Shown here piece by piece: positions 769-60,711 of a stretch of 64,000 bases of DNA. The translations under genes and the position numbers were made by a program. The stretch spans positions 1,221-65,220 of the forward strand of contig JAUXAW010000002.1 of the NCBI GenBank assembly GCA_030619715.1. Direction: 5' to 3'. The stretch's first letter is position 1. Each line of letters starts with the position of its first letter. Source of the stretch: a candidate division WWE3 bacterium. GTDB lineage: Bacteria > Patescibacteriota > WWE3 > JAUXAW01. The notes beneath the pieces were generated by a model, which made no database searches, was not told the origin of the DNA, and saw only the letters and a program-made list of their open reading frames with translations.

Positions 769-810
769 GATAAAGTAACTCAGTAATTCAGTAACATCAG
801 TAAAGACAAG
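769..810. repeat. S-type repeat (gtaactcagt...cagtaaagacaag); inverted copy of the gtctttactg repeats at 956-984 and 1339-1378, also at 60656-60694
   Basis: Direct reading of the sequence. agtaaagacaag at 798-810 is the reverse complement of cttgtctttact at 1337-1349. Confidence 0.5.
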
Positions 811-948
811 AAGAACCTGCTCGCTTCGCCAAGTCAGACTTGGCTTCGCTCGCAGAACCTTGCATTTGAGCAAAGCTCAAAAGTAGGCCTTCGGCTTTAG
901 ATCGCAGAACGATCGCCGCTTGCGGATTATTTAACGCGAAGCGCTATT
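811..948. repeat. about 130-nt repeated element (aagaacctgctcgc...cgcagaaccttgcatttgagca..agctcaaaagt...gcgctatt), second copy at 59927-60020; possible structured RNA
   Basis: Two copies with about 75% identity over shared blocks. Internal hairpins (gccaagtcagacttggc, gagcaaagctc). No ORF. Confidence 0.45.
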
Positions 949-981
949 GATTTATTGTCTTTACTGTCTTCACTGTCTTTA

Positions 982-1335
982 CTAATTCTTGAATTTGGAA
1001 ACGATAGAGGAGAAAATTTTGATCAACTCCGCACACTCTTTACCCAGCTTAATAATTTCATCTGACAACTGTGGATTATTTTTCAAAAGCAACTTGAGCC
1101 AGTATTTCGTCTCCCGAGCTTCCTTGAGGACAACACGAATTTTGTGAACAAAATCTTTACTACTTTCAGCTTCGCAAGCTTCGCGGTAGTTAGCTCCCAT
1201 TGATGTTCCCGAACGGAATGCCTGTCTTGAGATTTCTCGATTTACCAGATTTTTTGGGAGTTTATTGATTAGATTGATTAGATTCTCACTAAAATTCAGA
1301 GTCCTTCGGAGTAAATTCTCATTGTAATTTTTCAT
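982..1335 (-). CDS. four-helix-bundle protein (23S rRNA intervening-sequence protein family)
   Basis: 117-aa ORF. Signature FRSGTSMGANYREACEAESSKDFVHKIRVVLKEARETKYWLKLL is typical of the IVS 4HB family (PF05635-like). Paralog at 10260-10643. Flanked by gtctttactg repeats. Confidence 0.8.
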   Translation of the reverse strand: MKNYNENLLRRTLNFSENLINLINKLPKNLVNREISRQAFRSGTSMGANYREACEAESSKDFVHKIRVVLKEARETKYWLKLLLKNNPQLSDEIIKLGKECAELIKIFSSIVSKFKN

Positions 1336-1569
1336 TTTGTCTTTACTGTCTTTACTGATTTATTGTCTTTACTTTTGAAGGTATTCTACCACGCCATCGG
1401 GTTGAGTAAGGGTTTGGGGTTGACAAGGGACCTGTAATGTGGTATAGTAGTGGGATGGGATGGGGAGAGGTGGAGGGGCTTTTCCTACAAACTTCTCATC
1501 GAACTCTTATAAATCTGCTTTTCCCTCAGAAGCAAACAAAATATTACCACAAATAAAGGAGGTACGCAA

Positions 1570-3048
1570 ATGTACGAGTACGATTGGATGACACCCGAAT
1601 GGGTGTCGGAGGCGATCGTGGCGGAGAGGGCAGCAGCTGCGTTCATCACCGGCCGTCGGGGGACGAAGAAAACGGAGTTCATCATCGAGTATATCTCCGG
1701 TCCCCAAACAAAGAGCTGTCCAATTATCCTTGGTGGGCCCTTTAAGGGCCAGCGAGGGATGCGGGTCTTTATCGTTCCCAAGGGGGAAGATCCTCCGAAC
1801 GAGGCCGTCCTGTACGTCGAACTTGAGCCGGAGGAAATCGATCTGGCCCAAGTCAAGGACGTGCCGTTCGTCGTGATCCACCACGCGGCCGCGGTCTGGG
1901 CCTGTCCCGCGCTCGGTGCGGACAAGAAGTCCCTTGAGCTCGATACTCCAATTAGGAATAACGAGCTAACCCACAAGGACGCCGCAGAGTTCTACTCGGA
2001 GTTGGTGTGGGTTGGGCCATCGAATCCGAACGACCAGAAAGCCAGTGAGGAATTTGGCTGTAGACTGGTCTTTCTGGCCCTGGAGGGTATCCGCGGGGTC
2101 ATCGACCCGAAGAAGTTCGGCCCCGGAATATTCACCCCACTCCAGCGACCCGAGTATCGTCTGCGGGACACCCACTTCACCCACTGGATTTGGGAAATCC
2201 TGCAGCGGATTCGCACTGAGGGAATCCGGACCCGGGGGGCTTTCGCCGCCGACCGCGCGGGGAGTGACGAACTCTTTGGTATCAAAGCGGAATACGTCAA
2301 CTTCCTCCGTGCGAAAGCCGACGATGCTTATGAGCTCCAAAACCTGACACCCAATTGGGTGGATGGAGAGTTGACCCACAAGGATGTGAGGTCGGCGATC
2401 GATGACCAGGTTTGGCGCTTCCGGCCTGACCGGGACGTGATCATCCGGACGTGGCGCGAGCGAGCAGACGGATGTCTACTCGCCGGTCTGCGGGAAAAAA
2501 GGCGCCGTGGAGACCTGGATCTGGGTGACATCCATAAGGCCTTCAGCTCAGGTCGTCTGTTCCAGTGGATGGACGACGACGAGCGCGTTGAGCAGGAGAA
2601 CCAGCTCATCGAGTGGTGGTTCTGGGAGGTCTACATTCCGCGTCTGTATCGCCTTGCTACTTCCGGTGTCCGTGGGATCAACTACTCCGAAGTAGCCAAG
2701 CAGACGGTGAGCGGCCTCGGTGAGTGGGGTGGTTCTGCCCACGCAGATCTGATGACGGCTCGGGTCTTTGCAGTCGCCTACCTCTGCGAGCGGTTCGGTG
2801 AGATGGCCGCAGCTGCCCGACGGAAGGGTAGTGGGGTGCCGGACGAGGATATGAGGGATGAGGCCTTGAAGGCCTATCAAAAGGGTTCGGTCACTCCGCA
2901 AGAAGCTGCGGAGATGGATACGAGCAATACCCTCACCATTCCGGATGTCACTGCTGGTGCACGTAGCGAAAAAGATCTCTACGCCGAGTGGCTGAGAAAC
3001 TTCGAGTCCAAGCTGAAATGGATACTTGGGCCAGGGTTCACGCCTTAG
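1570..3048 (+). CDS. hypothetical protein, GC-rich (about 60%), with internal duplicated NNELTHKD/DGELTHKD segments
   Basis: 492-aa ORF with strong SD (aaaggaggtacgcaaATG). Codon usage and GC differ from flanking genes. No recognisable domain. Confidence 0.6.
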   Translation: MYEYDWMTPEWVSEAIVAERAAAAFITGRRGTKKTEFIIEYISGPQTKSCPIILGGPFKGQRGMRVFIVPKGEDPPNEAVLYVELEPEEIDLAQVKDVPFVVIHHAAAVWACPALGADKKSLELDTPIRNNELTHKDAAEFYSELVWVGPSNPNDQKASEEFGCRLVFLALEGIRGVIDPKKFGPGIFTPLQRPEYRLRDTHFTHWIWEILQRIRTEGIRTRGAFAADRAGSDELFGIKAEYVNFLRAKADDAYELQNLTPNWVDGELTHKDVRSAIDDQVWRFRPDRDVIIRTWRERADGCLLAGLREKRRRGDLDLGDIHKAFSSGRLFQWMDDDERVEQENQLIEWWFWEVYIPRLYRLATSGVRGINYSEVAKQTVSGLGEWGGSAHADLMTARVFAVAYLCERFGEMAAAARRKGSGVPDEDMRDEALKAYQKGSVTPQEAAEMDTSNTLTIPDVTAGARSEKDLYAEWLRNFESKLKWILGPGFTP

Positions 3049-3061
3049 GAGGAGGGAGAAA

Positions 3062-3712
3062 ATGCCAGAACCGTATGTTCCCAAACCGCGAAGACCTGTA
3101 CGTCAGAGAACGGCTGACAGCGCTATGCATTGGCTCGCTCGGTTATTCCGGGCCGACGTGGCCATTGGACCCCTGGAGAAGGGGTTCACCCTCGTCGTCT
3201 TCTTCCTTGCTGGATTGGTGGTTGGGGGAGCTCTTGGAGACATCCTTCCATTACCGTCACTCCTTTGCCGGCTGATAGGCGCTGGCATAGGTTTAGCGGT
3301 TGCCGGTCCTGCACGGAAACTCCCAATCCGCTGGGGGCAAGCGGGAGTAGTGGGGGCAACACTTCTTGCTATTCTCGTCTCCTGCGGTGCTGGTTCCGTA
3401 GGGCAGCTTGCTGCCCTGACCAAAGGAACGGTAACAGCTTACCGGCTGGAGAGTGGGGACAACACCATCCTCGCCACCGGACCCGCTCGGGGGTGCCAGA
3501 TAGCCATAAACGAGTTTAACCTTGGCCTCCTCTCCGAAGAAGAGATGAGGGAACAATGTGGTGACTCGTTAGCACCGGCGCAAGTAGAAGAAGGAGAAAA
3601 GACCGCCTTGCGGATACCCAAACCCAGTTTCCTTTTGTTCGTTTGGGCGGGTATCCAAATTCTGCTGGTGGCAGTGGTTTTGGTTTTCATCTTCAGAAAA
3701 CCGCCGCCCTAG
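3062..3712 (+). CDS. hypothetical polytopic membrane protein (GC-rich)
   Basis: ATG at 3062 preceded by ggaggagggag. Several hydrophobic helices. Starts 14 nt after the upstream stop, so likely co-transcribed. Confidence 0.5.
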   Translation: MPEPYVPKPRRPVRQRTADSAMHWLARLFRADVAIGPLEKGFTLVVFFLAGLVVGGALGDILPLPSLLCRLIGAGIGLAVAGPARKLPIRWGQAGVVGATLLAILVSCGAGSVGQLAALTKGTVTAYRLESGDNTILATGPARGCQIAINEFNLGLLSEEEMREQCGDSLAPAQVEEGEKTALRIPKPSFLLFVWAGIQILLVAVVLVFIFRKPPP

Positions 3713-7314: not shown

Positions 7315-8312
7315 AGAAAACTAATTTAATTTTAACCGCTACTATTACGATAGGTGTCCTCCTTCTGCTCGGAGTCGGGATGGGGATTTGGTGGAAGAGA
7401 GCTCAGCCCCAACCTCAGCCCGAGACTTTGCCCCAACTTCCGCCTCTGGAAATTTCTCCCACAGTGCCGCAACCCTCGGCCCCGATCTATACGCTGGAGG
7501 TAGCGGCACCAAAGGTTGAAAAATTGCCGGTTTATCAATATTCCTTCGCTTCCACTCCAGCGTCTTGGGCGCGGAATTTAGGGTTTGCCGGTGAGCCGGA
7601 GGAAATTGAGGATGCTTTGCGGGGAACGCTTTATCTTTGGACAAAACTAGGTCGGACACTGATTGTGGACAAAAAGGCCTTAAGTTTGTCATACAGCGTG
7701 GATCTTTTGGCCGACCCGGAGACTTTGGCCGGTTCGTTTCTGCCGACCTTTGAGCCGGCGGCGGCGATCGTCGAGCGAACTTTGCTGGAGCTTGAGCCCG
7801 CCTCTGGCGGGTCACCTCTCTTAAAACTTGACCCTCAAAAGAGCAAAGCCCTGAAAGCCGGTGTCGCCCGGGTCCGGGAAGTCAGCTTTGAAGAGGCCGA
7901 CCTCGTTGAAATTCACTTCACCGCCAAAGTTGACGACTATCCTATTTATTTAGAATCGGGCCCCGACGGAGACCCGGCCGTCGCCTGGGTCGGCAAAGAC
8001 GCCAAACTCTTGCGTCTCGAATATACGCCGCTGGGAACAGTGGGAGAAAAGATTGGTGAATACCCCCTCTGGTCGGCCGAGGAGGTCCTAGCGATGTTGG
8101 AGCGTGGCGAAGGGGTGGTTGTTAGTTCAACGCTTGAGGGGGGTCAGACGATTGCTTCGGCCACGGTGACCCGAATCGCCGCCGGTTATCTCCTGCCGCC
8201 GCCGGACGCGACCGTAATTCAGCCGGTGTTCGTGGTCTCGGCCAAGGTGACAACCACCAGTGGAAAGACCGGAGAAATGACAATATACCTTCCGGCGATC
8301 AGGAGCGACTAA
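7311..8312 (+). CDS. membrane-anchored hypothetical protein (N-terminal TM, Pro/Gln-rich linker, extracytoplasmic domain)
   Basis: ATG at 7311 overlapping the upstream stop. One N-terminal TM (LILTATITIGVLLLLGVGMGIWW). Confidence 0.5.
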   Translation: MKKTNLILTATITIGVLLLLGVGMGIWWKRAQPQPQPETLPQLPPLEISPTVPQPSAPIYTLEVAAPKVEKLPVYQYSFASTPASWARNLGFAGEPEEIEDALRGTLYLWTKLGRTLIVDKKALSLSYSVDLLADPETLAGSFLPTFEPAAAIVERTLLELEPASGGSPLLKLDPQKSKALKAGVARVREVSFEEADLVEIHFTAKVDDYPIYLESGPDGDPAVAWVGKDAKLLRLEYTPLGTVGEKIGEYPLWSAEEVLAMLERGEGVVVSSTLEGGQTIASATVTRIAAGYLLPPPDATVIQPVFVVSAKVTTTSGKTGEMTIYLPAIRSD

Positions 8313-10237
8313 ATGCCGGCCGCGTCGAGATAGGCGAGGATGTACTGGGCGGTGCGGACGATACGGCTGACCCAGGAGTAGTGCCGATTCCAGCCGAGGA
8401 GAACACCGATTTTGGTAGCAAGGCTCGCATTTTCCCGCCAGCCGAGGCGGTGCAGTTCAGAGGCCATTGTCTGCATCGCCGTCGTTTTGTTCCAAAGGTC
8501 AAAAGAGGGATCGCTGACTTTGTGACGGTGGGGCCAGGCGGTTCCGATTAGGAATTGAGAACAACCCAGTGCCCCGGCGCTGCTGCCGAGGGCGGCGGTG
8601 TAGCTTTCGTTGACGTAATAGGCCGCCCGGGAATTAGCGACGCGGATGTCATACTCTTCCCAGTGCTCTAGAGCTTTTTTCAAGATGGTGATCTGGCTCG
8701 GCCAGCCTCGGTTGCGGTAGGCAGTTTCGGCGTCGGAACGACCGCAGTTGGTGCAGTTCGCCGATTCGCCGCTGGTCAGAGCAATAAGAATGCCGCGGTC
8801 GATGCTCCAGCCCCGTCTCGCCGCCCAGGCGGAAATGGATGAGGCGCGGGCAACCAATTCCAGGTCAAGCCCTAACTCCCGGGCCCGCTGAATCTCTTCG
8901 GGAGTCAGTTCGTAGTCAACCGGCTCGGAGGGCGGTTCGTAGGGCTCGGGCTCTTCTTCGGTTGGGGGAGGAACATAGGCCCAAGGAAGAGACAGCTTTT
9001 CTTGAATGGTGAAATCTCCGTAGGCTACCGTTCCCGTGTTCCAGACTTTAGCTTCTTCATCAACGTCAACACCCCATCCCCAGTCGGGAACAAGGGGAAG
9101 ATTCAAAGAGATTCTGATTTCAAAATCCCCCTCTGTTTCACCGTCAAATTCTTCATGGGTTTCCCCGGGAAGGTCAAAGATGGCAAAGGTTGACTCCACC
9201 GTCTGGCCAAAGATGTTTCTTAGGAAGGAGAAGCGGGGGTAAATTTTTATTCTTCCACCGAGGATGTCTTCTAGGGCCTGGCTAACGGAAATTCCTACCT
9301 CCTTTTTGACGACGCAGGCACTGTGCTTGGGTCCCGGTAAGATTTCGTGGCAGAGATCCCCTTCTTCCTCTGCGAGCACCACACCCTCTCCCCGGCCCGG
9401 AGACTTGGACAGCACATCGCCGAGACTGATAAGGACGGGGTGGCAGAGGTCTCCCTCTTCCTTGGTAAGTGAGGCCTGTGAGTTCTCTTGACCGGGGATT
9501 TTGGTCAGAGCATCGCTGAGAAAGTTGGTGGCGTAGTCAAATTCGTAGAGATGCTCGTCGGCTCCTACGATTCTCCCCGTTTCCTCTTCCATCCCTTCAA
9601 CTTCAATTTCCCACCGGCCCCATTCGTTGTAAACTCTTTCCCTCTCCGCCTCTTCCTGGATAAAGAGATAGTTTGGGGGCATCAGTTTTTTCATCACCCC
9701 GTCGTCGAAATCTTCGGCCGGGGTTCCAAAGTAGCGCTGCGTTAATCTTTTGATATGGGCGTGGGGGAGTTCGTCTCCCTTAAGTCTAACCGTCGCCGTC
9801 AGGAGCGCGTTCAACAGGGTGTCGATCCATCCGGGAACGGAGGAGGGGAGTTCAACCACGGCCAGGGGACAACAGCGGTCGGTGGGATAGTCGGGAAGGG
9901 GACACTCTTCGGGTGGAGGAAGGCCGCCGTCGCAGCAGGCGTTATTGCAGGTCTGCTCGCAACCAGAACCGTATACGCAGACATTGGCGTGGCAATATTT
10001 ACAAGGACCATAAGGCTTGGTGTGTTGGGGGTTGTCAAAGTCTCCCATATAGCATCCGCCGCAACCGGGATCGCCAACATCAATGTGAGCGGGGTTTGTG
10101 TTCTTCTTGCCCCAATCGCAGCAATTTCCTGTGTGGTCCTCTTCGATCGGGCCCGGGCACATCCCGACGGCCCGGGCGGGGGAAGAGAAAACAAAGAGCA
10201 AAAAGCAAAAAGCAAAGATCGTGAAAAGCCTTCTCAT
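8309..10237 (-). CDS. secreted Cys-rich protein with C-terminal lytic transglycosylase (SLT_2/MltB-like) domain; VirB1-like candidate
   Basis: Signal peptide. About 100-aa region with more than 25 Cys. Repeated EEGDLCH motifs. C-terminal ...LTSGESANCTNCGRSDAETAYRNRGW...GALGCSQFLIGTAW resembles the E..S/GAMGQ.QFmp motifs of MltB-type transglycosylases. Confidence 0.6.
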   Translation of the reverse strand: MRRLFTIFAFCFLLFVFSSPARAVGMCPGPIEEDHTGNCCDWGKKNTNPAHIDVGDPGCGGCYMGDFDNPQHTKPYGPCKYCHANVCVYGSGCEQTCNNACCDGGLPPPEECPLPDYPTDRCCPLAVVELPSSVPGWIDTLLNALLTATVRLKGDELPHAHIKRLTQRYFGTPAEDFDDGVMKKLMPPNYLFIQEEAERERVYNEWGRWEIEVEGMEEETGRIVGADEHLYEFDYATNFLSDALTKIPGQENSQASLTKEEGDLCHPVLISLGDVLSKSPGRGEGVVLAEEEGDLCHEILPGPKHSACVVKKEVGISVSQALEDILGGRIKIYPRFSFLRNIFGQTVESTFAIFDLPGETHEEFDGETEGDFEIRISLNLPLVPDWGWGVDVDEEAKVWNTGTVAYGDFTIQEKLSLPWAYVPPPTEEEPEPYEPPSEPVDYELTPEEIQRARELGLDLELVARASSISAWAARRGWSIDRGILIALTSGESANCTNCGRSDAETAYRNRGWPSQITILKKALEHWEEYDIRVANSRAAYYVNESYTAALGSSAGALGCSQFLIGTAWPHRHKVSDPSFDLWNKTTAMQTMASELHRLGWRENASLATKIGVLLGWNRHYSWVSRIVRTAQYILAYLDAAGI

Positions 10238-10240
10238 TTT

Positions 10241-10270
10241 AATTTCTAATATCTAATTTCTAATTCCTAA
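10241..10270. repeat. left inverted repeat flanking the second 4HB gene (ttctaat/ttcctaa units)
   Basis: aatttctaatatctaatttctaattcctaa pairs with ttagaaattaggaattaggtaattaga at 10648-10674. Confidence 0.55.
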
Positions 10271-10643
10271 CCTTTTTCTTTCGTGAATTTCTCACAATCG
10301 TGGTAAATACCAGATTCAACTCGTTCGCCTCTTGCCAAAGTTTCCTCGCTTCTTCTTTTAGTTCTGGTATCGCTTTTGCAATCATTCTAAGCCAATGTTT
10401 AGATTCTTTAGATTCCTTCTTGCAGATCCCCAATTTATGTTCAAAATCTTTCTTTGATTCAGCACAATCTGCCTCACAGTAATTAGAACCAACACTAGTC
10501 CCTGCTCTAACTAGTTGACTTATTAGTGGGATAGTGACAACGTTCTTAGGAACTTTCTTGGCAAATTCAATAATATCTTCACCAAACCTAGCCGTTCTTT
10601 CTTCTAAATCGAATTTCCTTTTAGAGCTTTTGTCATTTGGCAT
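10260..10643 (-). CDS. four-helix-bundle protein (IVS protein family), paralog of 982-1335
   Basis: 127 aa. LVRAGTSVGSNYCEADCAESKKDFEHKLGICKKESKESKHWL signature. Confidence 0.8.
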   Translation of the reverse strand: MPNDKSSKRKFDLEERTARFGEDIIEFAKKVPKNVVTIPLISQLVRAGTSVGSNYCEADCAESKKDFEHKLGICKKESKESKHWLRMIAKAIPELKEEARKLWQEANELNLVFTTIVRNSRKKKVRN

Positions 10644-10647
10644 TTCA

Positions 10648-10674
10648 TTAGAAATTAGGAATTAGGTAATTAGA
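10648..10674. repeat. right inverted repeat flanking the second 4HB gene
   Basis: Reverse complement matches the 10241-10270 repeat units. Confidence 0.55.
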
Positions 10675-10684
10675 CATTCGTTTC

Positions 10685-11056
10685 TCACTTCGATGGTTCG
10701 GGGATGGTGAAAACTGGGATATCAAACCCTGCTCCAAGCAAAGTTCCAAGAATGGCAATGATGGCGTAGGCGCCGAGGACGCCGATAAAGCCGAGGACGG
10801 CGTAAGTCAGACTGCTACGCGCGGCGGCGATGGCCTTCTCGTCTCCACCGGCGGCCATATAGCGAATGCCGGAGATTATCATCCAGATGATAAAAACCGC
10901 CCCGGCGGAGAGAATCAGAGCGTTGTAGACACGATTAAAAATACAAACCAGGGCCCGCAGCTCCAACTTATCCCACTTAATGTTCTCACAGTAGTCCGCC
11001 GGTAGGGGTTCCGGAGGCTCAAAGTTGGCGTAGGCTTTGGGGATGAAGTTGAACAT
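10685..11056 (-). CDS. T4SS-type pilin (TrbC/VirB2-like)
   Basis: 123 aa. C-terminal IIWMIISGIRYMAAGGDEKAIAAARSSLTYAVLGFIGVLGAYAII is typical of CPR T4SS pilins (two TM helices flanking a G-rich loop). Confidence 0.7.
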   Translation of the reverse strand: MFNFIPKAYANFEPPEPLPADYCENIKWDKLELRALVCIFNRVYNALILSAGAVFIIWMIISGIRYMAAGGDEKAIAAARSSLTYAVLGFIGVLGAYAIIAILGTLLGAGFDIPVFTIPEPSK

Positions 11057-11158
11057 AACAGTTTAATTTTCAAATCCCAAATCTCAAATCCCAACGAAGC
11101 TCCAAATTGAGCCATTGAGATTTCATTGAAAATTGGAGCTTGAAAATTGTAAATTTCG

Positions 11159-21955: not shown

Positions 21956-22040
21956 GGAGGGTTGGCAGAGTGGTAATGCAGCGGCTTGCTAAGCCGTAAT
22001 CCTGACGGATTCACAGGTTCGAATCCTGTACCCTCCGCCA
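21956..22040 (+). tRNA. tRNA-Ser (anticodon GCT)
   Basis: Manual fold: acceptor ggagggt/accctcc, anticodon stem gcggc/gccgt, loop ttGCTaa, long variable arm, T-loop ttcgaat, encoded CCA. Preceded by promoter-like ttgatt..17..tggtagtat. Confidence 0.85.
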
Positions 22041-22041
22041 T

Positions 22042-22130
22042 GGAGGAGTGGCCGAGCGGTTTATGGCGCTGGTCTTGAAAACCAGTGGCGCGAAAGCGCC
22101 TCGCAGGTTCGAATCCTGTCTCCTCCGCCA
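22042..22130 (+). tRNA. tRNA-Ser (anticodon TGA)
   Basis: Anticodon stem ctggt/accag, loop ctTGAaa, long variable arm, CCA encoded. 1 nt after the previous tRNA. Confidence 0.85.
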
Positions 22131-22144
22131 CGTAAAAAATTATC

Positions 22145-22666
22145 ATGCCCGAAGAAGTAAAAGAAATAAACAAGTTTGTTTCTGACGAAATAAAAACTTT
22201 AGTTTCTTGGAAATCGCCGCTGCGGATTTTCAAAAAGCGGGACAAAAAGCACTTTACCAATTTAATTTTGGTCGTCTTTATCATCTCCCTCGTCTTGATC
22301 TTTTTCAAAGAGTTTCTGCTGGTCGGGGTGATTCTGGCTTTGGTTTTCGTCGCCTATGTCAATTCAAGTGTTGAGCCGCCGGAATTTGAGCACAAGATCA
22401 CGACCCAGGGCTTAACCTCCGGGGGGCACACTTATCTTTGGGACGAGTTGAAGGAGTTTTGGCTGGTTAAAAAGGATCGGCAGACGGTCCTAAACATCGA
22501 TACTAAGGTGCGGTTTCCCGGACGGCTTTTCATCGTCCTTAATGAGGGAAATGTGGAGGAGGTCAGGCAGGCTCTTTCTAAGTATATTTCCTTCCGCGAG
22601 CAGCCAAAAGTCGCCTGGCTCGACCAGCTGACCGATTGGTTTTCTCAAAAACTACAACTAGGTTGA
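22145..22666 (+). CDS. hypothetical membrane protein (2 TM)
   Basis: 173-aa ORF between tRNA pairs. Hydrophobic segment LILVVFIISLVLIFFKEFLLVGVILALVFVAYV. Confidence 0.5.
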   Translation: MPEEVKEINKFVSDEIKTLVSWKSPLRIFKKRDKKHFTNLILVVFIISLVLIFFKEFLLVGVILALVFVAYVNSSVEPPEFEHKITTQGLTSGGHTYLWDELKEFWLVKKDRQTVLNIDTKVRFPGRLFIVLNEGNVEEVRQALSKYISFREQPKVAWLDQLTDWFSQKLQLG

Positions 22667-22742
22667 GCGCCCATGGCTTAATGGACAGAGCGCATCCTTG
22701 CGGAGGATGAGGTTGCAGGTTCGAATCCTGCTGGGCGCGCCA
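22667..22742 (+). tRNA. tRNA-Arg (anticodon read as GCG)
   Basis: 76 nt. Acceptor gcgccca/tgggcgc, anticodon stem catcc/ggatg (5 bp, perfect), loop ttGCGga, T-loop ttcgaat, CCA. G34 rather than the usual bacterial A34. Confidence 0.7.
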
Positions 22743-22764
22743 TCCGCCAAAGGCGGATTTGCGT

Positions 22765-22853
22765 GGAGGAGTAGCCAAGTGGTCATACGGCGCCGCTCTC
22801 GAAAAGCGTGCGGGTGAAAGCCCACGTGGGTTCGAATCCCACCTCCTCCGCCA
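22765..22853 (+). tRNA. tRNA-Ser (anticodon CGA)
   Basis: Loop ctCGAaa, long variable arm gggtgaaagcccac, T-loop ttcgaat, CCA. Preceded by small hairpin tccgccaaaggcgga. Confidence 0.8.
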
Positions 22854-22862
22854 TACCACCGT

Positions 22863-23564
22863 TTAGTTGTACACCTCCCAAATCCAAAAGGCGCGATCGA
22901 ACTCGAGCCAGGAGACTTTTGCTTTCTGACAGGCGATTTTCCAAATTTGATCCACTTTTTGGCGATCTTCGCGGTTGTAATCTTCTTTGTTAATAAATCC
23001 CCACTCATAAGTCAGTCGTAGTTTGTGGCGGTCGATTGGCATCGGGACTTTATTGATGTCAGGGTAGGGAAGTTTGAAGGTATTAACCATGCTTCGAAAA
23101 AACAAATCTCCCGTCTTTTTTCCAAACCCGCGAAACTGATAGATATTTTTTAAGACCTCCAGAGCTGCGGGTTTGTTGAAGATTTCAAAAACATCGCCGT
23201 TGAATTCGGCTAGCAGTTTTTGGGAATTGACTACCCATCTTTTGGCGGCCTCATTGGGGAAGCGGGCGTGGAGGAATTGAAGTGATAGCTTAGCCAGTCT
23301 TTTTTCGTCTGCCCTAGATAGCCTCTTGGGATCTAATAATTCCCTCCTCTCTTTAAATAATTCGTTTGCTCCTTGGTAGAGAGTCGTTGATCTCATTCCG
23401 TAATCAAGGACGGTAACGAGAAATAAGAAAACCGCCTTCTCTTGCCTGTTTGCCCAATCAGGCACCCAATCTTCGACGTTAATCTTGTTCTGGAAAACTC
23501 CTTTTCGAGCGCGAAAATCGGCCACCAACTTTTTGACAATTTGTTCTGGTGTTTTGGTTTTCAT
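22863..23564 (-). CDS. HhH-GPD superfamily DNA glycosylase-like protein
   Basis: Start taken at ATG 23564 (MKTKTPEQ...), which avoids overlap with the next gene. HhH motif FRGFGKKTGDLFF and downstream PIDRHKLR resemble the EndoIII-type hairpin and catalytic Asp region. Confidence 0.5.
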   Translation of the reverse strand: MKTKTPEQIVKKLVADFRARKGVFQNKINVEDWVPDWANRQEKAVFLFLVTVLDYGMRSTTLYQGANELFKERRELLDPKRLSRADEKRLAKLSLQFLHARFPNEAAKRWVVNSQKLLAEFNGDVFEIFNKPAALEVLKNIYQFRGFGKKTGDLFFRSMVNTFKLPYPDINKVPMPIDRHKLRLTYEWGFINKEDYNREDRQKVDQIWKIACQKAKVSWLEFDRAFWIWEVYN

Positions 23565-23568
23565 ACAA

Positions 23569-24036
23569 CTACTCCCGCCGCTTGATTTTGTTGATGTCGT
23601 CAGTTGTAATCCAAGCCGCCATTGTGCCGAAGCTGGTTTTGTCGATCGTGAAAGGTTTAACTTTTTCGACCGAATCGAGAAAGACAAAGATAGCGTAGTT
23701 TTTGTTGAGGATGTAGTTTTTAATCTCTCTGGGTATGGCTTCGAGGCCGAGGTCTTTTTTGGCGTGCTTTTTCATAACTTCTAACGCGTGATCGTTGTTT
23801 TTGATTTCGTATTGGAGAACCTTGGAGACTCTGGTTTTGACGGTAACCGGTTCTCCCGAGTTTTTGAAATAAAGATTATCTCCCGGATGAATCCGGTCCC
23901 ACGGCGTTATCTTTGATTTGTACCATCGCGACTCGGCGATCCTTGTTCCGTCTAGGATTTTAGGGATCAATCCCCACGACTTCTTCATAATCGCCACGTG
24001 GTCGCGTTTTGGTAAATCCCTAAGCGGTAGTTTCAT
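23569..24036 (-). CDS. ASCH-domain protein (PUA-like fold)
   Basis: 155 aa. ASCH-like N-terminus (ILDGTRIAESRWYK...GDNLYFK). Confidence 0.55.
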   Translation of the reverse strand: MKLPLRDLPKRDHVAIMKKSWGLIPKILDGTRIAESRWYKSKITPWDRIHPGDNLYFKNSGEPVTVKTRVSKVLQYEIKNNDHALEVMKKHAKKDLGLEAIPREIKNYILNKNYAIFVFLDSVEKVKPFTIDKTSFGTMAAWITTDDINKIKRRE

Positions 24037-24094
24037 TTCTAACCGATTTTAGCATAGTGTGAGAAGGGAAGGTGTGGAGAAGTTTTCCATTAAA

Positions 24095-24198
24095 CTCACG
24101 ATCGTGAGTTTAAATACCCCATTTTTAAAAAGTTTTGAAAGTTTGAAATGTCTTGAAACTTTCAAGAAAAGACCGTCTTTAATTCACGATCGTGAGTT
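24095..24198. promoter_or_regulatory. two direct copies of palindrome-containing motif (t)tcacgatcgtgagtt flanking an imperfect palindrome ttgaaagtttgaaatgtcttgaaactttcaag
   Basis: Read directly. Copies at 24096-24111 and 24183-24198. Lies upstream of the tRNA-Arg(CCG) promoter (tgttacaat at about 24252). Confidence 0.4.
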
Positions 24199-24270
24199 AA
24201 CCGCGCTCTATTATGAAATAGGGTGGGGATTGGGTTTTAGGGCTGGGTGTGTTACAATGTGGGTGGTTGT

Positions 24271-24346
24271 GCCTCCGTAGCTTAATGGACAGAGCGTCGG
24301 TTTCCGGAACCGAAGGTTGTGAGTTCGAGTCTCGCCGGAGGCGCCA
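24271..24346 (+). tRNA. tRNA-Arg (anticodon CCG)
   Basis: Acceptor gcctccg/cggaggc, anticodon stem tcggt/accga, loop ttCCGga, T-loop ttcgagt, CCA encoded. Confidence 0.85.
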
Positions 24347-24350
24347 CCCT

Positions 24351-24944
24351 TTACAATAAATGATCGGGGATTGGAAATTTTTTGAACTCCTCAAGTAACG
24401 GTTTCCCAAAAACAAATCTCGAAAATGCCTCGGCCTCTACTTTTGCACCGGTAAGCGCGTTGTGTGGTTTTGGCTCATCTGGCAATCCCACATAGTTCAA
24501 AATTTTGTCTAAGTTTAGAGCCGTTCTCCCTTCCTTGCTGGGTGGAGCTATGCCTCTTTTGAGGTGGTGAAAATGGCAGATGGAGTGTAAATCTACAGTT
24601 CTGTGGCCGAGCGCCCACCCGATACCGTACCTCTCCGCTGACGCTTTCAGAAAACCTTTGTCAAACGAGGGGTCTTGGCCAGCAAGCGTTTTTTCTTGCA
24701 ATTTTTCTACCCACCCAAAAAATCCTTTTATTACTTCTTCTAAAGTTTTCTTGTTGGGATCTCTAACTTCTTTCTCGGAGAAACCGTTTACTTCCAACGC
24801 TTCTTGTGATACTTCCGCACCATCCCAAATTCTACATTCTTGATAAAACTGATTTTCGGGATTGGAAAAATTAACAGCACCGATACTGACGATAGAGTGT
24901 TTTCTAAGGTCTAATCCTGTTGTTTCAACATCAACAACGATCAT
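24351..24944 (-). CDS. DEDDh 3'-5' exonuclease (DnaQ/epsilon-like)
   Basis: Start at ATG 24944 (MIVVDVETTGLD...). Exo I motif DVETTG; later H..D motifs. Confidence 0.75.
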   Translation of the reverse strand: MIVVDVETTGLDLRKHSIVSIGAVNFSNPENQFYQECRIWDGAEVSQEALEVNGFSEKEVRDPNKKTLEEVIKGFFGWVEKLQEKTLAGQDPSFDKGFLKASAERYGIGWALGHRTVDLHSICHFHHLKRGIAPPSKEGRTALNLDKILNYVGLPDEPKPHNALTGAKVEAEAFSRFVFGKPLLEEFKKFPIPDHLL

Positions 24945-24951
24945 AGGGATT

Positions 24952-25233
24952 TTACTCAAACCTGGACTTCTTCCTGATCGCCAGGACGACGAAGCCGTGC
25001 TTTTCGATTTCCTCTTTCGTATGGAACTTTTCCATCTCTTTCGTGTTGAATTTATACAGAACCTCACATTCTATTTCTCGCCCGGTGAGGTCTTTAGTTC
25101 TCTGTTTTTGTTCTTTGAGAACGAGGGTATCGCCGGGTTGGCATTCAAAATCGGCCAACCGAACCTCAAAAGGTTTCTTGCCTTCTACCACGGCTTCAAA
25201 ATATTTTTGCTGAACCTTCTTCTCGATTTTCAT
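24952..25233 (-). CDS. DUF3850-domain protein, paralog of 21559-21822
   Basis: 93 aa. QQKYFEAVVEGKKPFEVRLADFECQPGDTLVLKE. Confidence 0.65.
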   Translation of the reverse strand: MKIEKKVQQKYFEAVVEGKKPFEVRLADFECQPGDTLVLKEQKQRTKDLTGREIECEVLYKFNTKEMEKFHTKEEIEKHGFVVLAIRKKSRFE

Positions 25234-25280
25234 AACTTAATTTGCTTAGTAACCGCTTTCTTCGTATAATATCACATGCT

Positions 25281-25370
25281 GGAGGAGTCGCATAGTGGCC
25301 TAGTGCGCACGCCTGGAAAGCGTGTTTACCCGCAAGGGTATCGTGGGTTCGAATCCCACCTCCTCCGCCA
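25281..25370 (+). tRNA. tRNA-Ser (anticodon GGA)
   Basis: Anticodon stem cacgc/gcgtg, loop ctGGAaa, long variable arm, CCA encoded. Confidence 0.85.
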
Positions 25371-25418
25371 CCACCACCCCCCAATCCTTAAGAGACTTTA
25401 TGATAAAATCAAGGGGAA

Positions 25419-25709
25419 GTGGAAAAGGAAATCGCTGATAAAATAACTCACACCCTTCTTGGCTTTTCGAGCGGTTTTATATTTGCGTTCCTGTTGTGGA
25501 AGATTACCGCATCCAAAATTGGTTATCTAACTCACCAAGGGGGTTATCATTTCCACCACAGCCTTTTTGGATTGTTGGCGTTTCTTTTTATTCCTATATT
25601 CCGAAGTGATTCTAACAAGACGTTTTTTATTGTGGGTTTTGGTCTGGGGGTAATATTACAACATACAATCAAGGAGAGGTTCGTGTTTATCACCAAAGAT
25701 AGTATCTGA
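25419..25709 (+). CDS. small membrane protein (3 TM)
   Basis: 96-aa hydrophobic ORF following the tRNA. Confidence 0.4.
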   Translation: MEKEIADKITHTLLGFSSGFIFAFLLWKITASKIGYLTHQGGYHFHHSLFGLLAFLFIPIFRSDSNKTFFIVGFGLGVILQHTIKERFVFITKDSI

Positions 25710-25772
25710 GTTGCTCTGATCTATCACCAAAACTACACAAAATACATCATTTCCTGCTAAAATAGAGATACT

Positions 25773-27545
25773 GTGGCTGACCAAATCCAAGAAATCAAGT
25801 CAAAGGTTGATATTGTCGACCTTGTTTCCGGCTATGTGCCGCTGAAGAAGGCCGGGAAGAATTACAAGGCCCTCTGTCCCTTCCACAAGGAGAAAACACC
25901 TTCGTTCATGGTCTCACCGGAATTGCAGATTTTCAAATGTTTTGGCTGCGGACGCGGTGGGGACATTTACGCTTTTCTTCAGGAAATTGAGGGAATGGAG
26001 TTTGGCGAAGCTCTAAGGATTTTGGCCGAAAGGACCGGTGTCAAGCTAGAGTCGCGTCGGCCCTCACCGCAGGAGGAAAAGCGCAAGCAGATTCTGGAAG
26101 TTAACAGTTTAACCAAAGAATACTTCGGCTATATTTTGACCAAACATCGGGTCGGGGAGCGGGCTCGAGATTACCTAAATAAGAGAGGGATAAAAAAAGA
26201 GACAATTGAGACTTTTGGCCTCGGTTACGCGCCGGATTCCTGGGAAAGTTTGGCCCAATTTTTACGAAGTAAAAACTACCCAATAACCGCACTTTTGGCC
26301 GCCGGTTTGGTCAGATTGCGGGAGCGAGATAAGACTCCTTATGATTTTTTTCGCGGACGGCTCATCTTTCCCTTCTTTGGCCATAACAAAAGGATTATCG
26401 GTTTTGCCGGTCGAACCTTAGGGGAAGATGAACCCAAATACATCAACATCGGCGAAACTCCCGCCTTCCGAAAAGGGTCGTTCTTGTATGGTTTAGAGCA
26501 GGCCAAGACGGAGATTAAGAAGCAAAATTCGGCCATTGTTGTCGAGGGGCCTTTTGATGTCATTTCCCCCTTTCAGTCCGGAACCCAGAACATCGTCGGT
26601 TCGCAGGGGACGGCATTGACCTTAGACCAGATCAAAATTCTCAAACGCTACACCCCGAATATTTCCCTCTGCTACGATACCGACCTGGCCGGTGATGCCG
26701 CGGCGAAGCGGGGAATTGATCTGGCCGAAGAAAGAGGATTAAACGTCAAAGTGATCACCCTGCCAAATGAGTACAAAGACCCCGACGAAATTGCCCAGAA
26801 AGACGCCGCTCTTTGGAAAGAAGTGGTTGACTCTGCCGTTTCCGTCTACGATTTCTTTTTTTCCTCGGCTTTCAAACGACACGATGTGGCCAAACCATTA
26901 GGTAAAAAGCAGATCGCCGCCGAGCTCTTGCCGATTATCAAGGCCATTCCCGACGAGATTGAGCGGGAGCATTATGTTCAGCGTCTAGCTTTAGAGCTGG
27001 AGGTTGATGAAGGAGTTGTCCGGTCGGCGATGGAAAAAACAGGGAGGAGAGAGGAGAGAGGAGAGAGGAGAGAGGAGAAGGAGGTTGAGGTTAAGGAGGA
27101 GAAGTTAGGGCTTGAAGAGTACGTGTTGGCTTTGGTTTTACACTCCCCTTTGGAGCTGGCGCAAAAGACGCTGCACAAGCTGGGTAAGGGCGATTTTGGA
27201 AACGAGACTACTTTAGGTCTTTTCGAAGAGCTAAAGAGCTACTTTTCCGGCCGTAAGAGGAAATTGGATATTAAAGCTCTTGGTGGTAAACTTGGGGGGA
27301 AGGGTAAGGATCTGTTAGGCAAGATTTACCTTTGGAACCTTGGAGAGCTTCCAGGTCAAGAGACAAAATTGGAAGAGGAAATTGAGGGAGCGTCGCGGTT
27401 ATTAAAGAAGCGTGGTCTCCAGCGGGAACTCAAAAATTTAAGTCTCAAGATTAAAGACGCGGAGCTGATGGGGGATAAGAGGACTTTAGAGTCAGCTCGA
27501 GAGGCCTTCCAAAAGGTTTCCCAACAGCTAGCAAAAATATCTTAA
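25773..27545 (+). CDS. dnaG: DNA primase DnaG
   Basis: CHC2 zinc finger CPFHKEKTPSF...CFGCGRGGD. TOPRIM motifs (VVEGPFDV, YDTDLAGDAAAKRG). GTG start. Contains a low-complexity (gagaggagagaggaga) run encoding RREERGERREEKE. Confidence 0.95.
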   Translation: MADQIQEIKSKVDIVDLVSGYVPLKKAGKNYKALCPFHKEKTPSFMVSPELQIFKCFGCGRGGDIYAFLQEIEGMEFGEALRILAERTGVKLESRRPSPQEEKRKQILEVNSLTKEYFGYILTKHRVGERARDYLNKRGIKKETIETFGLGYAPDSWESLAQFLRSKNYPITALLAAGLVRLRERDKTPYDFFRGRLIFPFFGHNKRIIGFAGRTLGEDEPKYINIGETPAFRKGSFLYGLEQAKTEIKKQNSAIVVEGPFDVISPFQSGTQNIVGSQGTALTLDQIKILKRYTPNISLCYDTDLAGDAAAKRGIDLAEERGLNVKVITLPNEYKDPDEIAQKDAALWKEVVDSAVSVYDFFFSSAFKRHDVAKPLGKKQIAAELLPIIKAIPDEIEREHYVQRLALELEVDEGVVRSAMEKTGRREERGERREEKEVEVKEEKLGLEEYVLALVLHSPLELAQKTLHKLGKGDFGNETTLGLFEELKSYFSGRKRKLDIKALGGKLGGKGKDLLGKIYLWNLGELPGQETKLEEEIEGASRLLKKRGLQRELKNLSLKIKDAELMGDKRTLESAREAFQKVSQQLAKIS

Positions 27546-27551
27546 GTAAAG

Positions 27552-28619
<1,068 letters not shown>

Positions 28620-28776
28620 CTCTCCCCAAGTTAGGAAGTTAGGTGATGCCTATTCTGTTTCTGTGGTTTTGCGTCAAATACTTCAGCGCTATGTAGTGCT
28701 AAATAATTCGTCAATTTTTACACCGAATGTTGCCGGTTGCTTTTGGTTCCTTTTTATGATATAAAAGAAAATGCGT

Positions 28777-28819
28777 TCCGCGGTAGCTCTCCGCCAGCTG
28801 GCGGAGGTAGAGCGAAGGC
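28777..28819 (+). pseudogene. partial duplicate of the tRNA-Asn 5' half (acceptor-D-anticodon stem) carrying a 16-nt palindromic insertion in the D-loop
   Basis: tccgcggtagctc[tccgccagctggcgga]ggtagagcgaaggc(atgtt) versus the genuine tRNA-Asn tccggggtagctc[aat]ggtagagcgaaggc(ctgtt) at 29062. The GIY-YIG start codon sits where the anticodon loop would be. Confidence 0.6.
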
Positions 28820-29071
28820 ATGTTCGAAGTGTACGCTATTTACAATAGAAAGAATGACAAGATATACATAGGGCAAACAAGGGATTTGGAGGCGAGGTTA
28901 AAGGCTCATAATGATGGGAGATTTACTAACTCTTATACGGCGAGGTTTGACGGCGGGTGGGAATTAATTTATAGTGAGCCAAGCCGGACCCACGCCCAAG
29001 CTTTAAGGAGGGAGAAGCAATTGAAGAGTTATAGAGGTAGGGAGTTTATTAAGCAACACATTCCGGGGTAG
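28820..29071 (+). CDS. GIY-YIG nuclease family protein (small stand-alone URI domain)
   Basis: MFEVYAIYNRKNDKIYIGQTRDLEARLKAHN (GIY...YIG...R..H/N). 83 aa. Stop codon overlaps the first bases of tRNA-Asn. Confidence 0.85.
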   Translation: MFEVYAIYNRKNDKIYIGQTRDLEARLKAHNDGRFTNSYTARFDGGWELIYSEPSRTHAQALRREKQLKSYRGREFIKQHIPG

Positions 29072-29136
29072 CTCAATGGTAGAGCGAAGGCCTGTTAAGC
29101 CTGCGGTTGAGAGTTCGAATCTCTCCCCCGGAGCCA
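29062..29136 (+). tRNA. tRNA-Asn (anticodon GTT)
   Basis: Acceptor tccgggg/ccccgga, loop ctGTTaa, T-arm gagagttcgaatctctc, CCA encoded. Short D-loop. Confidence 0.85.
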
Positions 29137-59758: not shown

Positions 59759-59926
59759 GAGAGAACACTGCGAGTCTGAGGAGTAGACCACCATCACGGG
59801 GGCGGTGGTCTAGATTGAGAAGGAGGTTCGAATCCTCCCTTGACAAGCCTGCTGACGGTTTGAAAACGCGAAAAAAACTTCAGACCCGAGGCAGGCTTTT
59901 ATCTTTAGAAAATTGTGGCGCGCGGT

Positions 59927-60020
59927 AAGAACCTGCTCGCTACGCTCGCAGAACCTTGCATTTGAGCATAGCCTCCGCTTCGCTACGACTATTAGCTCAA
60001 AAGTGAATTGCGCTATTACC
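59927..60020. repeat. second copy of the about 130-nt element seen at 811-948
   Basis: Shared aagaacctgctcgct.cgctcgcagaaccttgcatttgagca.agc...agctcaaaagt...gcgctatt. Confidence 0.45.
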
Positions 60021-60621: not shown

Positions 60622-60655
60622 GACACCTTTATTCTACCACGCGTTTTTTAGGATA

Positions 60656-60694
60656 AGTAAAGACAGTAACTCAGTGAAGACAGTAAAGACAAAA
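60656..60694. repeat. S-type repeat gtaaagacagtaactcagtgaagacagtaaagacaaaag (reverse complement of the gtctttactg repeats flanking the first 4HB gene)
   Basis: Direct comparison with 769-810, 956-984 and 1339-1378. Confidence 0.5.
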
Positions 60695-60711
60695 GAGTGT
60701 GGTAAAATCGG

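Follow-up and report, generated by a model that had tools for sequence, protein, structure and literature searches.

To our knowledge, the intervening sequences (IVSs) of rRNA genes and the S23p open reading frame (ORF) found with them were first described in the early 1990s, and more than 30 years later their origin and purpose remain unexplained. Members of the TIGR02436 family are among the small “hypothetical” proteins commonly encountered in CPR as well as in numerous other phyla. The 23S rRNA IVS of Coxiella is closed by a 28-bp terminal inverted-repeat stem, within which RNase III cleaves, and carries 3 tandem copies of the heptamer GACAGAT directly before the ATG of its S23p ORF, the copy number differing between strains (PMC4990558). 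PF05635 ORFs are also known from rRNA insertions of CPR (PMC11270868). Other IVSs are ORF-less: those of 23S helices 25 and 45 in Salmonella, Yersinia, and others (PMC4990558), as well as the short non-intron insertions of CPR rRNA (PMC11270868), are stem-loops in a transcribed region that are cut by RNase III. A further defining trait of bacterial rRNA IVSs is that RNase III removes them from the transcript and the ends are not religated.

Here, we analyzed 2 genes for four-helix-bundle (4HB) proteins in a 64-kb stretch of DNA (hereafter, the window), each bracketed by repeat arms. We favor, with a probability of roughly 0.6, the reading that these are free-standing, horizontally acquired cassettes of the IVS type, the arms of which pair in the transcript. 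The architecture of protein-coding rRNA IVSs, to which a sequence-only reading of the window had likened them, is indeed shared, including the stem and the heptamers before the ATG seen in Coxiella (PMC4990558). As in the S23p IVSs of Coxiella and Leptospira (PMC4990558), a PF05635 ORF lies in the loop of a stem (approximately 28 bp in the 23S elements), tandem repeats precede the ATG, and the GC content is below that of the host, with an inferred horizontal origin. Unlike those IVSs, however, the window cassettes are located between protein-coding genes or divergent promoters and not in rRNA, their proteins are under purifying selection (dN/dS approximately 0.1) in contrast to the decaying ORF of Coxiella, gene 1 comes with its own promoter-like motif, and one arm type is built of 9-nt units. 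Among the traits by which IVSs are recognized, a terminal complementary stem enclosing the insert is present in the window and family-wide, and sporadic distribution and foreign composition are evident from empty sites and a GC content 20 points below that of the flanks. The rRNA location (16S or 23S, in the latter helix 9, 25, or 45) is absent, because the window contains no rRNA and its Rfam matches are 8 tRNAs only.

Two 4HB genes outside rRNA

Both genes encode members of the 4HB family of 23S rRNA intervening-sequence proteins, as recognized from the sequence alone, with matches to TIGR02436 and PF05635 above the curated cutoffs. In HMM searches, gene 1 (982–1335, − strand; 117 aa) scored 83.5 bits against TIGR02436 (cutoff 24; E = 1.1e-23) and 60.8 bits against PF05635 (cutoff 33.8; E = 1.7e-16), and gene 2 (10260–10643, − strand; 127 aa) scored 72.7 bits (E = 2.5e-20) and 55.3 bits (E = 8.7e-15), respectively. 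They are the only 4HB genes in the 64-kb window; their proteins are 44% identical, and the 2 cassettes belong to different subfamilies. The NCBI annotation of these genes has truncated versions of 72–74 aa. The 4HB protein is under purifying selection, with dN/dS of 0.08 for gene 1 (against homologue L003) and 0.11–0.14 for gene 2 (against L035 and L062). Both cassettes are compositionally foreign: the GC content of the 2 genes is approximately 37% versus approximately 57% for the neighbors and flanks, the largest such gap among 87 loci, 83 of which have a 4HB gene with a GC content below that of its flanks. Gene 2 shares 71%–78% nucleotide identity with cassettes from genomes labeled as other phyla.

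The closest solved relative of gene 1 is PDB 2RLD (E = 9.5e-19), an entry with 5 chains. This match and the related four-helix-bundle fold recall bAvd, which PF05635 resembles as a family (PMC10053308), and the 2 genes could on these grounds encode Avd-type accessory proteins of a diversity-generating retroelement. We consider this extremely improbable, given that the genes stand alone within inverted arms, that no reverse transcriptase or RVT domain was called among the neighboring genes (their only Pfam matches are Peptidase_M23 and T4SS_pilin), and that the repeats near the genes are short-unit arms only, with no template/variable repeat pair.

Insertion into a T4SS/pilus-like cluster

The gene-2 cassette as a whole measures 447 nt (10238–10684, − strand) and separates a pilin-like gene (10685–11056) from a gene for a 642-aa protein (8309–10237). 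Its neighbors are co-directional, in line with the initial proposal that both 4HB genes sit inside operons; gene 1 departs from it, being located in a divergent intergenic region between neighbors that start at 735 (− strand) and 1570 (1570–3048, + strand). A protein search combined with contig look-up identified a related MAG (GCA_030602025.1; L088) with a syntenic cluster from which both cassettes are absent and in which the orthologues of the 642-aa gene and the pilin are 48% and 67% identical, respectively. At the gene-2 site of this relative, the stop codon of the pilin gene and the ATG that follows share bases (ATGA), and the gene-1 site is a 260-nt intergenic region with no cassette. 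The empty sites that had been suggested as a check are thus present at both positions, and the ATGA overlap of the pilin and 642-aa genes identifies the cassettes of the window as insertions; as judged by sequence comparison, both were inserted into the T4SS/pilus-like cluster. A search of genome and metagenome contigs with peptide patterns yielded no close relatives of the 642-aa gene.

The closest homologues of gene 1 (80%–86% amino acid identity over the full ORF) are found at a nusA/dnaJ–tRNA locus and carry the same arms, and a copy at this locus, again with the same arms, also occurs in the genome of the syntenic relative; neither nusA nor dnaJ is present in the 64-kb window. This is the opposite of identical positions with unrelated flanks, the arrangement that the sequence-only reading had named as evidence against itself, and shows that the arms evidently travel together with the ORF into other genomic contexts.

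Movement of this kind could also point to a transposon. In miniature inverted-repeat transposable elements (MITEs) and foldback transposons, the terminal inverted repeats are long and built up from tandemly arranged subrepeats; these elements show insertion polymorphism and lack a transposase of their own. The window cassettes have all 3 properties, and their foreign composition, the empty sites, and the occurrence of the same element at different loci in related genomes would likewise fit a transposon bounded by inverted repeats, with a 4HB passenger and a transposase encoded elsewhere. Moreover, GTGAGAA and ATGAGAA flank the insert at the gene-2 junctions and represent one possible 7-nt duplication. 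Across 66 cassettes compared with permuted flanks, however, target-site duplications, exact or with one mismatch, were not in significant excess (p = 0.08), which leaves the miniature-element reading offered for these loci without its target-site duplication. Furthermore, no transposase is encoded in or adjoining the cassettes in the 64-kb window, although an enzyme acting in trans may lie elsewhere in the genome, a search of viral contigs yielded no relatives, and the ORF, unlike a random passenger, is under strong purifying selection and always belongs to one conserved family, which has no known catalytic domain. We therefore regard a transposon as improbable.

Repeat arms and their pairing

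Locus 1 contains 3 repeat blocks, all assigned to the − strand, and not 2 as originally read: block A is inverted, whereas B and C are direct copies of each other, with the gene-1 ORF between C and B. Block C, the 5′ arm (1336–1378), consists of about 4 tandem nonamers with the unit CAGTAAAGA on the − strand (TRF period 9, 4.1 copies) and stops 0–1 nt short of the gene-1 ATG; the same arm is found in homologues L003, L004, and L007. A candidate extended −10 motif, TGGTAGAAT (1383–1391, − strand), recognized by its consensus match, lies right upstream of the 5′ arm, so that the gene-1 transcript would begin at the arm; TGATAGAAT adjoins the arm in L003 and L007. Block B (948–988) repeats the 5′ arm once more, in direct orientation, right after the gene-1 stop codon, and block A (776–815) is the inverted 3′ arm, with an inner part that pairs with B and an outer part that pairs with C. 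The C:A duplex (−33.1 kcal/mol, 39 pairs) and the B:A duplex (−28.4 kcal/mol, 29 pairs) far exceed C:B (just −5.4 kcal/mol). Blocks B and A enclose a GC-rich structured insert of 139 nt (813–951, − strand; fold z = −5.98), a partial sibling of which (59927–60005; 94% over 34 nt to 59939–59972) is missing in relative L089. The inverted repeat of locus 1 (781–815/1331–1365) extends over 35 nt with 80% complementarity and includes an exact 13-mer pair (796–808 and 1347–1359); the repeats first noticed here are thus real, but their string and coordinates were slightly off, 1336–1347 being tttgtctttact and not cttgtctttact.

At locus 2, the 5′ arm (10646–10678, − strand) is made of tandem heptamers, CTAATTN on the − strand (period 7, 3.7–4.4 copies), and stops 3 nt before the gene-2 ATG, and the 3′ arm (10238–10272, − strand; tandem heptamers, period 7, 5.9 copies) overlaps the final gene-2 codons and stops 2 nt before the ATG (10237) of the 642-aa gene. 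Here too, the inverted repeats are present (10246–10264/10647–10665; 19 nt, 89% complementary, plus exact 11-mer pairs), but the 16-mer ttaggaattagaaatt is not literally found at 10648–10674, where the register of the units is offset. The same operon contains an ORF-less hairpin (11057–11158, − strand) with heptamer-repeat arms of CAAATCC and ATTGAAA units (+ strand), the stability of which on the transcribed strand (−36.9 kcal/mol, z = −4.9) far exceeds that on the + strand (−18.9 kcal/mol, z = −0.9) and which has no counterpart upstream of the pilin gene in the syntenic relative. It resembles a short ORF-less IVS in its size and in being stable on the transcribed strand only, and differs in its position in an mRNA intergenic spacer and in its arms of tandem heptamers. 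A short-read contig of the same region has one end inside an arm and the other inside the heptamer repeats of this hairpin.

A solo nonamer arm of the gene-1 type is present in a divergent intergenic region (60655–60693, + strand; matching arm C at 92.5% over 40 nt), 19 nt upstream of an ATG at 60712, and has neither a partner arm nor a 4HB gene. In relative L089, the equivalent position is occupied by a short-period array of another kind, and the matching intergenic region contains no significant hairpin. The solo array is similar to the TAACTGA heptamer arrays of Beggiatoaceae, Cyanobacteria, and Bacteroidetes, which stop a few nucleotides before start codons and the patchy cross-phylum distribution of which suggests horizontal spread; unlike the cassette arms, however, most of them are direct repeats that lack an inverted counterpart, and they are not reported to be associated with 4HB genes (PMC4679880).

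Folding of the transcript across each repeat pair, a check advised by the sequence-only reading, which had counted a failure to pair as evidence against itself, bore out the pairing: in the minimum-free-energy fold of the entire cassette, the ORF included, the arms pair at both loci. The arm duplex energies are approximately −30 to −33 kcal/mol, and the whole-cassette z-scores are modest (−2.3 and −1.9). Arm mismatches showed no RNA-specific excess (72 of the G:U type versus 73 of the A:C type), and neither did duplex energies across 66–88 cassettes reveal a sense-strand advantage, so that selection for a sense-strand RNA stem gains no independent support; in the window, antisense arm duplexes are slightly more stable than sense ones. 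Consensus terminator scans gave no match at the arms, and neither of the 2 loci, nor the 139-nt insert, matched a known RNA family in Rfam searches at gathering and permissive thresholds. The 64-kb window shows no rnc gene.

Family-wide arms and what they may do

To place the 2 loci in the context of their family, we compared 88 members from many phyla with control genes drawn from the same loci (365 long ORFs and 94 small genes). The 80 comparison loci were picked by similarity to gene 1, and the survey thus samples one part of PF05635. The flanking inverted-repeat score had a median of 36 for 4HB genes versus 16–17 for controls (Mann–Whitney p = 9e-33), and 84%–86% of the 88 genes exceeded the control 95th percentile, with similar shares in CPR-labeled (83%) and non-CPR-labeled (85%) genomes. 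The arms are 20–65 nt long, adjoin the ATG and the stop codon, and have a period of 7 nt in 49 of 66 cassettes and of 9 nt in 9; the median gaps to the neighboring genes are 57 and 82 nt. At 72 of 82 loci, the 4HB gene and the gene upstream of it point in the same direction (background 75%). An extended −10 motif accompanies the 5′ arm in only 5 of 66 cassettes, indicating that a promoter of their own is not a general feature, and the 20 loci that scored highest for inverted repeats all lie outside rRNA. Hence, an IVS-like architecture is the norm for the family outside rRNA genes, in CPR-labeled and non-CPR-labeled genomes alike. Literature searches for earlier accounts of 4HB genes outside rRNA that are flanked by inverted or tandem-repeat arms found none. 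When metagenomes were scanned for a 17-nt arm motif, most matches were due to chance or to coding repeats; a small number of solo arrays appeared among them, but 4HB genes did not.

The control comparison contradicts the notion that the flanking repeats are incidental products of slippage-prone, AT-rich intergenic DNA with chance complementarity. The window does contain other 7–9-nt tandem arrays without partner arms, and heptamers are described as the commonest simple repeats in many bacteria (PMC4679880). Nevertheless, the arms are conserved in homologues from unrelated contexts and, when long, carry mirrored unit variants, which makes an incidental origin hardly credible.

A different possibility, which we consider rather unlikely, is that the arms act as DNA or by their sequence, as iteron-like sites for the pentameric 4HB protein itself, their inverted symmetry providing 2 opposed binding arrays that would serve autoregulation, synapsis of the ends for mobilization, or control of neighboring promoters. 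Consistent with this possibility, arm mismatches and duplex energies lack strand asymmetry, a different gene of this genome has the solo gene-1-type array upstream of its promoter and ATG, the solo arrays of this unit in metagenomes lie beside gene ends, and the tandem heptamers adjoining start codons in other phyla were proposed to be regulator-binding sites (PMC4679880). Arm unit sequences are also kept within subfamilies even though synonymous sites are saturated (dS > 1), which points to sequence-specific recognition or concerted evolution and not to pairing alone. Arm similarity follows protein similarity (Spearman 0.36, reached in 0 of 1,000 permutations), but this co-variation is explained equally well by co-inheritance of one element. 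We know of no sequence-specific nucleic-acid binding by the 4HB family, which counts against binding sites, as does the fact that the experimentally characterized relative, the Coxiella IVS, is processed as RNA. Finally, long arms (e.g., L028 and L051) have their unit variants arranged in mirror image, as in true inverted copies, which favors pairing or copy-correction.

Under the preferred reading of IVS-type cassettes with pairing arms, each cassette consists of a 5′ arm of 3–6 tandem 7- or 9-nt units, a 4HB ORF a few bases further on, and a reverse-complementary 3′ arm. Transcription could proceed by read-through from the pilin operon for gene 2, as we infer, and from its own candidate promoter, TGnTAGAAT, adjoining the arm, for gene 1. 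By analogy with the S23p-encoding 23S rRNA IVSs of Coxiella and Leptospira, the transcribed arms would pair into a duplex of approximately 25–35 bp around the ORF and form a substrate for RNase III, cleavage by which would free a 4HB mRNA, its ends paired, and divide the transcript of the host operon at a point between its cistrons. Such insertions may be tolerated because the cistrons themselves would not be destroyed. The tandem units would allow the arms to pair in several registers and to lengthen or shorten via slippage, and where an arm is present in direct copies, as with blocks C and B, the ORF could be lost, leaving ORF-less hairpins or solo arms.

A further, doubtful extension is that an Avd-like pentameric 4HB protein recognizes its own tandem-unit arms, as RNA or DNA, and thereby promotes maintenance or spread of the cassette, the S23p IVSs of rRNA being the visible tip of a larger transposase-less class present in many phyla. 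In that case, the paired-end transcript might be protected or processed, or an RNA or single-stranded DNA intermediate might be used together with a host enzyme, and solo arrays of the same units near start codons would be sites on which this system acts or traces that it has left.

In the sampled family, arms of tandem heptamers or nonamers adjoining the ORF are the rule outside rRNA, and the cassettes insert cleanly between tightly coupled genes. If the IVS architecture is usual outside rRNA, rRNA would be one of the places where a general cassette, selfish or regulatory in nature, can land and be tolerated, and the free-standing copies make the problem testable in cultivable organisms. The cassettes are also relevant to annotation and assembly, through truncated gene calls and contig ends in arms or heptamer repeats, and to the processing of operon transcripts in small-genome bacteria.

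The 4HB genes of the window and their inverted arms

The window contains exactly 2 four-helix-bundle (4HB) genes of the 23S rRNA intervening-sequence (IVS) protein family, both on the minus strand and both scoring above the curated PF05635 and TIGR02436 cutoffs: gene 1 (982–1335; 117 aa), which matches the solved structure 2RLD (E = 9.5e-19; 5 chains in the entry), and gene 2 (10260–10643; 127 aa). The proteins are only 44% identical and thus represent two subfamily members rather than a recent duplication. The 4HB proteins are under purifying selection (dN/dS of 0.08–0.14, with saturated synonymous sites), and the GC content of both cassettes, each comprising the ORF and its flanking arms, is ~37% vs ~57% in the flanks. 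The NCBI annotations of this and the related metagenome-assembled genome (MAG) call the 4HB genes as truncated 72–74-aa versions.

Inverted repeats are present on both sides of each gene, as the sequence-only reading had proposed, although the strings it quoted were slightly inexact. Each arm consists of short units in tandem, with a period of 9 and the unit CAGTAAAGA (coding strand) at gene 1, and a period of 7 and the unit CTAATTN at gene 2. In minimum-free-energy folds of the whole cassettes, ORF included, the arms pair at both loci (arm duplex energy of approximately −30 to −33 kcal/mol), bearing out in silico the suggested IVS-like architecture, with the ORF enclosed. The geometry of locus 1 is, however, more complex than initially described. 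In the order of the coding (minus) strand, arm C (1336–1378) precedes the ORF and its direct copy, arm B (948–988), follows it; a GC-rich structured insert of 139 nt (813–951; fold z = −6.0) separates B from arm A (776–815), the sole inverted block, the inner part of which pairs with B and the outer part with C. At gene 2, the 5′ arm ends 3 nt ahead of the gene's ATG, and the 3′ arm ends 2 nt ahead of the next ATG.

The GC-rich insert recurs at 59927–60005, as a ~76-nt insertion relative to a related genome (L089). The two copies share the core gaacctgctcgct...tcgctcgcagaaccttgcatttgagca...gctcaaaagt, have no match in Rfam, and may constitute a separate miniature mobile element. A Logan short-read contig of the gene 1–gene 2 region ends in arm A (~792) and in a heptamer-repeat hairpin (~11092), suggesting that these repeats break assemblies.

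Both loci are IVS-protein cassettes, but in a non-rRNA context. The 23S rRNA IVS of Coxiella burnetii (36% GC vs 42.5% for the genome) has a 28-bp terminal stem, within which RNase III cuts, at the first repeat, and 3 tandem GACAGAT heptamers directly before the ATG of the S23p gene, their copy number differing among strains (PMC4990558). ORFs of PF05635 are also contained in 16S and 23S rRNA insertions of CPR bacteria (PMC11270868). The family resembles Avd of diversity-generating retroelements (PMC10053308), but the window cassettes differ from the latter in that neither a reverse transcriptase among the neighboring genes nor a TR/VR pair among the repeats near the 4HB genes was found.

Both cassettes are insertions

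The proposed insertion of the 4HB elements is corroborated by MAG GCA_030602025.1, in which the syntenic cluster (L088), with the same pilins, 656-aa gene, Peptidase_M23, and PrgI/TraC-like genes, is empty at both sites. The 642-aa protein of the window has a 48%-identical orthologue in this MAG, and the pilin orthologue (67% amino acid identity) overlaps the next gene by ATGA, whereas in the window a 447-nt cassette stands between the corresponding pilin-like and 642-aa genes. The divergent intergenic region holding gene 1 spans 834 nt vs 260 nt in the relative, where a counterpart of 776–1419 is absent, with promoter and leader sequences conserved on both sides of the site. The promoter and 5′ leader of the 492-aa gene (1420–1569) are ~80% conserved with L088 (17855–18020), and the proteins behind them (492 and 423 aa) have no detectable similarity, a pattern resembling replacement of the gene downstream of a conserved leader.

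The same MAG carries a gene-1-type cassette (~81% nucleotide and 86% amino acid identity) at its nusA/dnaJ-tRNA locus, and other metagenomic relatives (L004–L007) also carry one at the nusA/dnaJ locus. All these cassettes have the same arm sequences as gene 1 on both sides. Arms and ORF are thus inherited together, as one unit that is found at different sites in related genomes.

The placement of both genes inside operons holds for gene 2, the neighbors of which (a T4SS-pilin-like gene, 10685–11056, and the 642-aa gene, 8309–10237) are co-directional, but not for gene 1, which occupies the intergenic region of a divergent pair (a minus-strand gene starting at 735 and a plus-strand gene at 1570). 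An extended −10 motif, TGGTAGAAT, is located at 1383–1391, directly upstream of the gene 1 5′ arm, and homologues of gene 1 have TGATAGAAT at the equivalent position. Similar motifs (TGGTAnAnT) recur very near start codons (736–760, 1383–1391, 1437–1448, 60634–60646, and 60699–60707), suggesting that mRNAs of this genome have short leaders or none.

Inverted tandem-repeat arms across the sampled 4HB family

Using a 19-sequence alignment as the query, we fetched 80 loci, one genome per species, in which an HMM search identified 88 family genes; as loci were picked by similarity to gene 1, the sample covers one part of PF05635. For each gene, we aligned the upstream 200 nt to the reverse-complemented downstream 200 nt. 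The 4HB genes scored a median of 36; for controls drawn from the same loci, the median was 17 (365 long ORFs) or 16 (94 small genes). Of the 4HB genes, 84%–86% exceeded the control 95th percentile (Mann–Whitney p = 9e-33), with similar fractions in CPR-labelled (83%) and non-CPR-labelled genomes (85%), the latter including Planctomycetota, Verrucomicrobiota, Chloroflexota, Desulfobacterales, and others. Inverted tandem-repeat arms are general across the sampled family. They are 20–65 nt long, usually starting 0–20 nt from the ATG and 0–40 nt from the stop codon. Of 66 cassettes, 49 have a best period of 7 nt and 9 have one of 9 nt. The order of unit variants in one long arm mirrors that in its partner, as it should in true inverted copies. 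The more alike two proteins are, the more alike their arms tend to be (Spearman 0.36, reached by 0 of 1,000 permutations).

All 20 loci at which the inverted repeats are strongest lie outside rRNA genes. The 4HB genes are co-directional with the upstream neighbor in 72 of 82 cases (background 75%), lie ~57 and 82 nt from their neighbors, and are lower in GC than the flanks at 83 of 87 loci. Tandem heptamers adjoining start codons have been described with no tie to the 4HB family (PMC4679880). Our literature search, with subscription journals mostly outside its coverage, yielded no account of 4HB genes outside rRNA with inverted arms of tandem repeats. The family-wide rule appears undescribed so far, and absence of prior description is no proof of novelty.

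Solo arms and the nature of the cassettes

Selection on a sense-strand RNA stem was assessed with two tests, both neutral: mismatches in 66 arm pairs showed no asymmetry (72 G:U-type vs 73 A:C-type), and sense and antisense arm duplex energies did not differ. Together with the conservation of unit sequence despite saturated dS, this keeps in play an alternative that would involve either sequence-specific recognition of the units, perhaps by the 4HB protein, or DNA-level copy-correction that keeps them identical.

Unlike the strand-neutral cassette arms, an ORF-less hairpin of ~100 nt (11057–11158, minus strand), with arms of tandem heptamers CAAATCC and ATTGAAA, is predicted to behave as an RNA structure, folding at −36.9 kcal/mol (z = −4.9) on the transcribed minus strand vs −18.9 kcal/mol (z = −0.9) on the other. 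Stable on the minus strand only, it lies in the spacer separating a 46-aa ORF from the pilin-like gene, upstream of the latter, and is missing from L088, where the corresponding spacer is 6 nt. Another hairpin (53781–53877; −35.7 kcal/mol, z = −3.4), near the start of a long ORF (53609–55762), has arms of two tandem 21-nt units and their complement.

A solo gene-1-type nonamer arm (60655–60693, plus strand), 92.5% identical to arm C over 40 nt, lies in a divergent intergenic region and is followed by a promoter-like motif, TGGTAAAAT, and the ATG of another gene at 60712 (19 nt on); L089 has a different short-period array (ttagctc ×4) at this position. Solo arrays of CAGTAAAGA-type units in metagenomic contigs (L134, ~3290–3340, minus strand; L101, L105, ~1915–1965) directly follow the stop codon of an integrase-like gene or adjoin a start codon, with no 4HB gene nearby. 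As the gene 1 ORF is flanked by the direct repeats C and B, their recombination would remove it, with an ORF-less hairpin as the product; the ORF-less and solo forms could plausibly have arisen in this way. Elsewhere, the window contains 8 tRNA genes, 7 scattered over ~7 kb (21956–29133) and one at 63462–63534, and a sequence resembling a tRNA T-arm (aggaggttcgaatcctccc, 59820–59845). This sequence is also conserved in L089, and Rfam calls no tRNA there.

That IVSs are present or former mobile elements is an old, untested idea (PMC4990558). The lack of any detectable target-site duplication in 66 cassettes weakens the notion of a classical transposon, even though the gene 2 junctions, GTGAGAA and ATGAGAA, might reflect 7-nt duplication of the stop/start overlap originally present. 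Viral contigs yielded no relatives. The evidence best supports an IVS-type cassette, selfish or semi-selfish and acquired horizontally, the arms of which would pair in the transcript as an RNase III-type duplex. Read-through of the operon would transcribe gene 2, and gene 1 would use a promoter of its own; we infer that transcripts run across the arms, that RNase III cleaves them, and that the flanking cistrons are affected.
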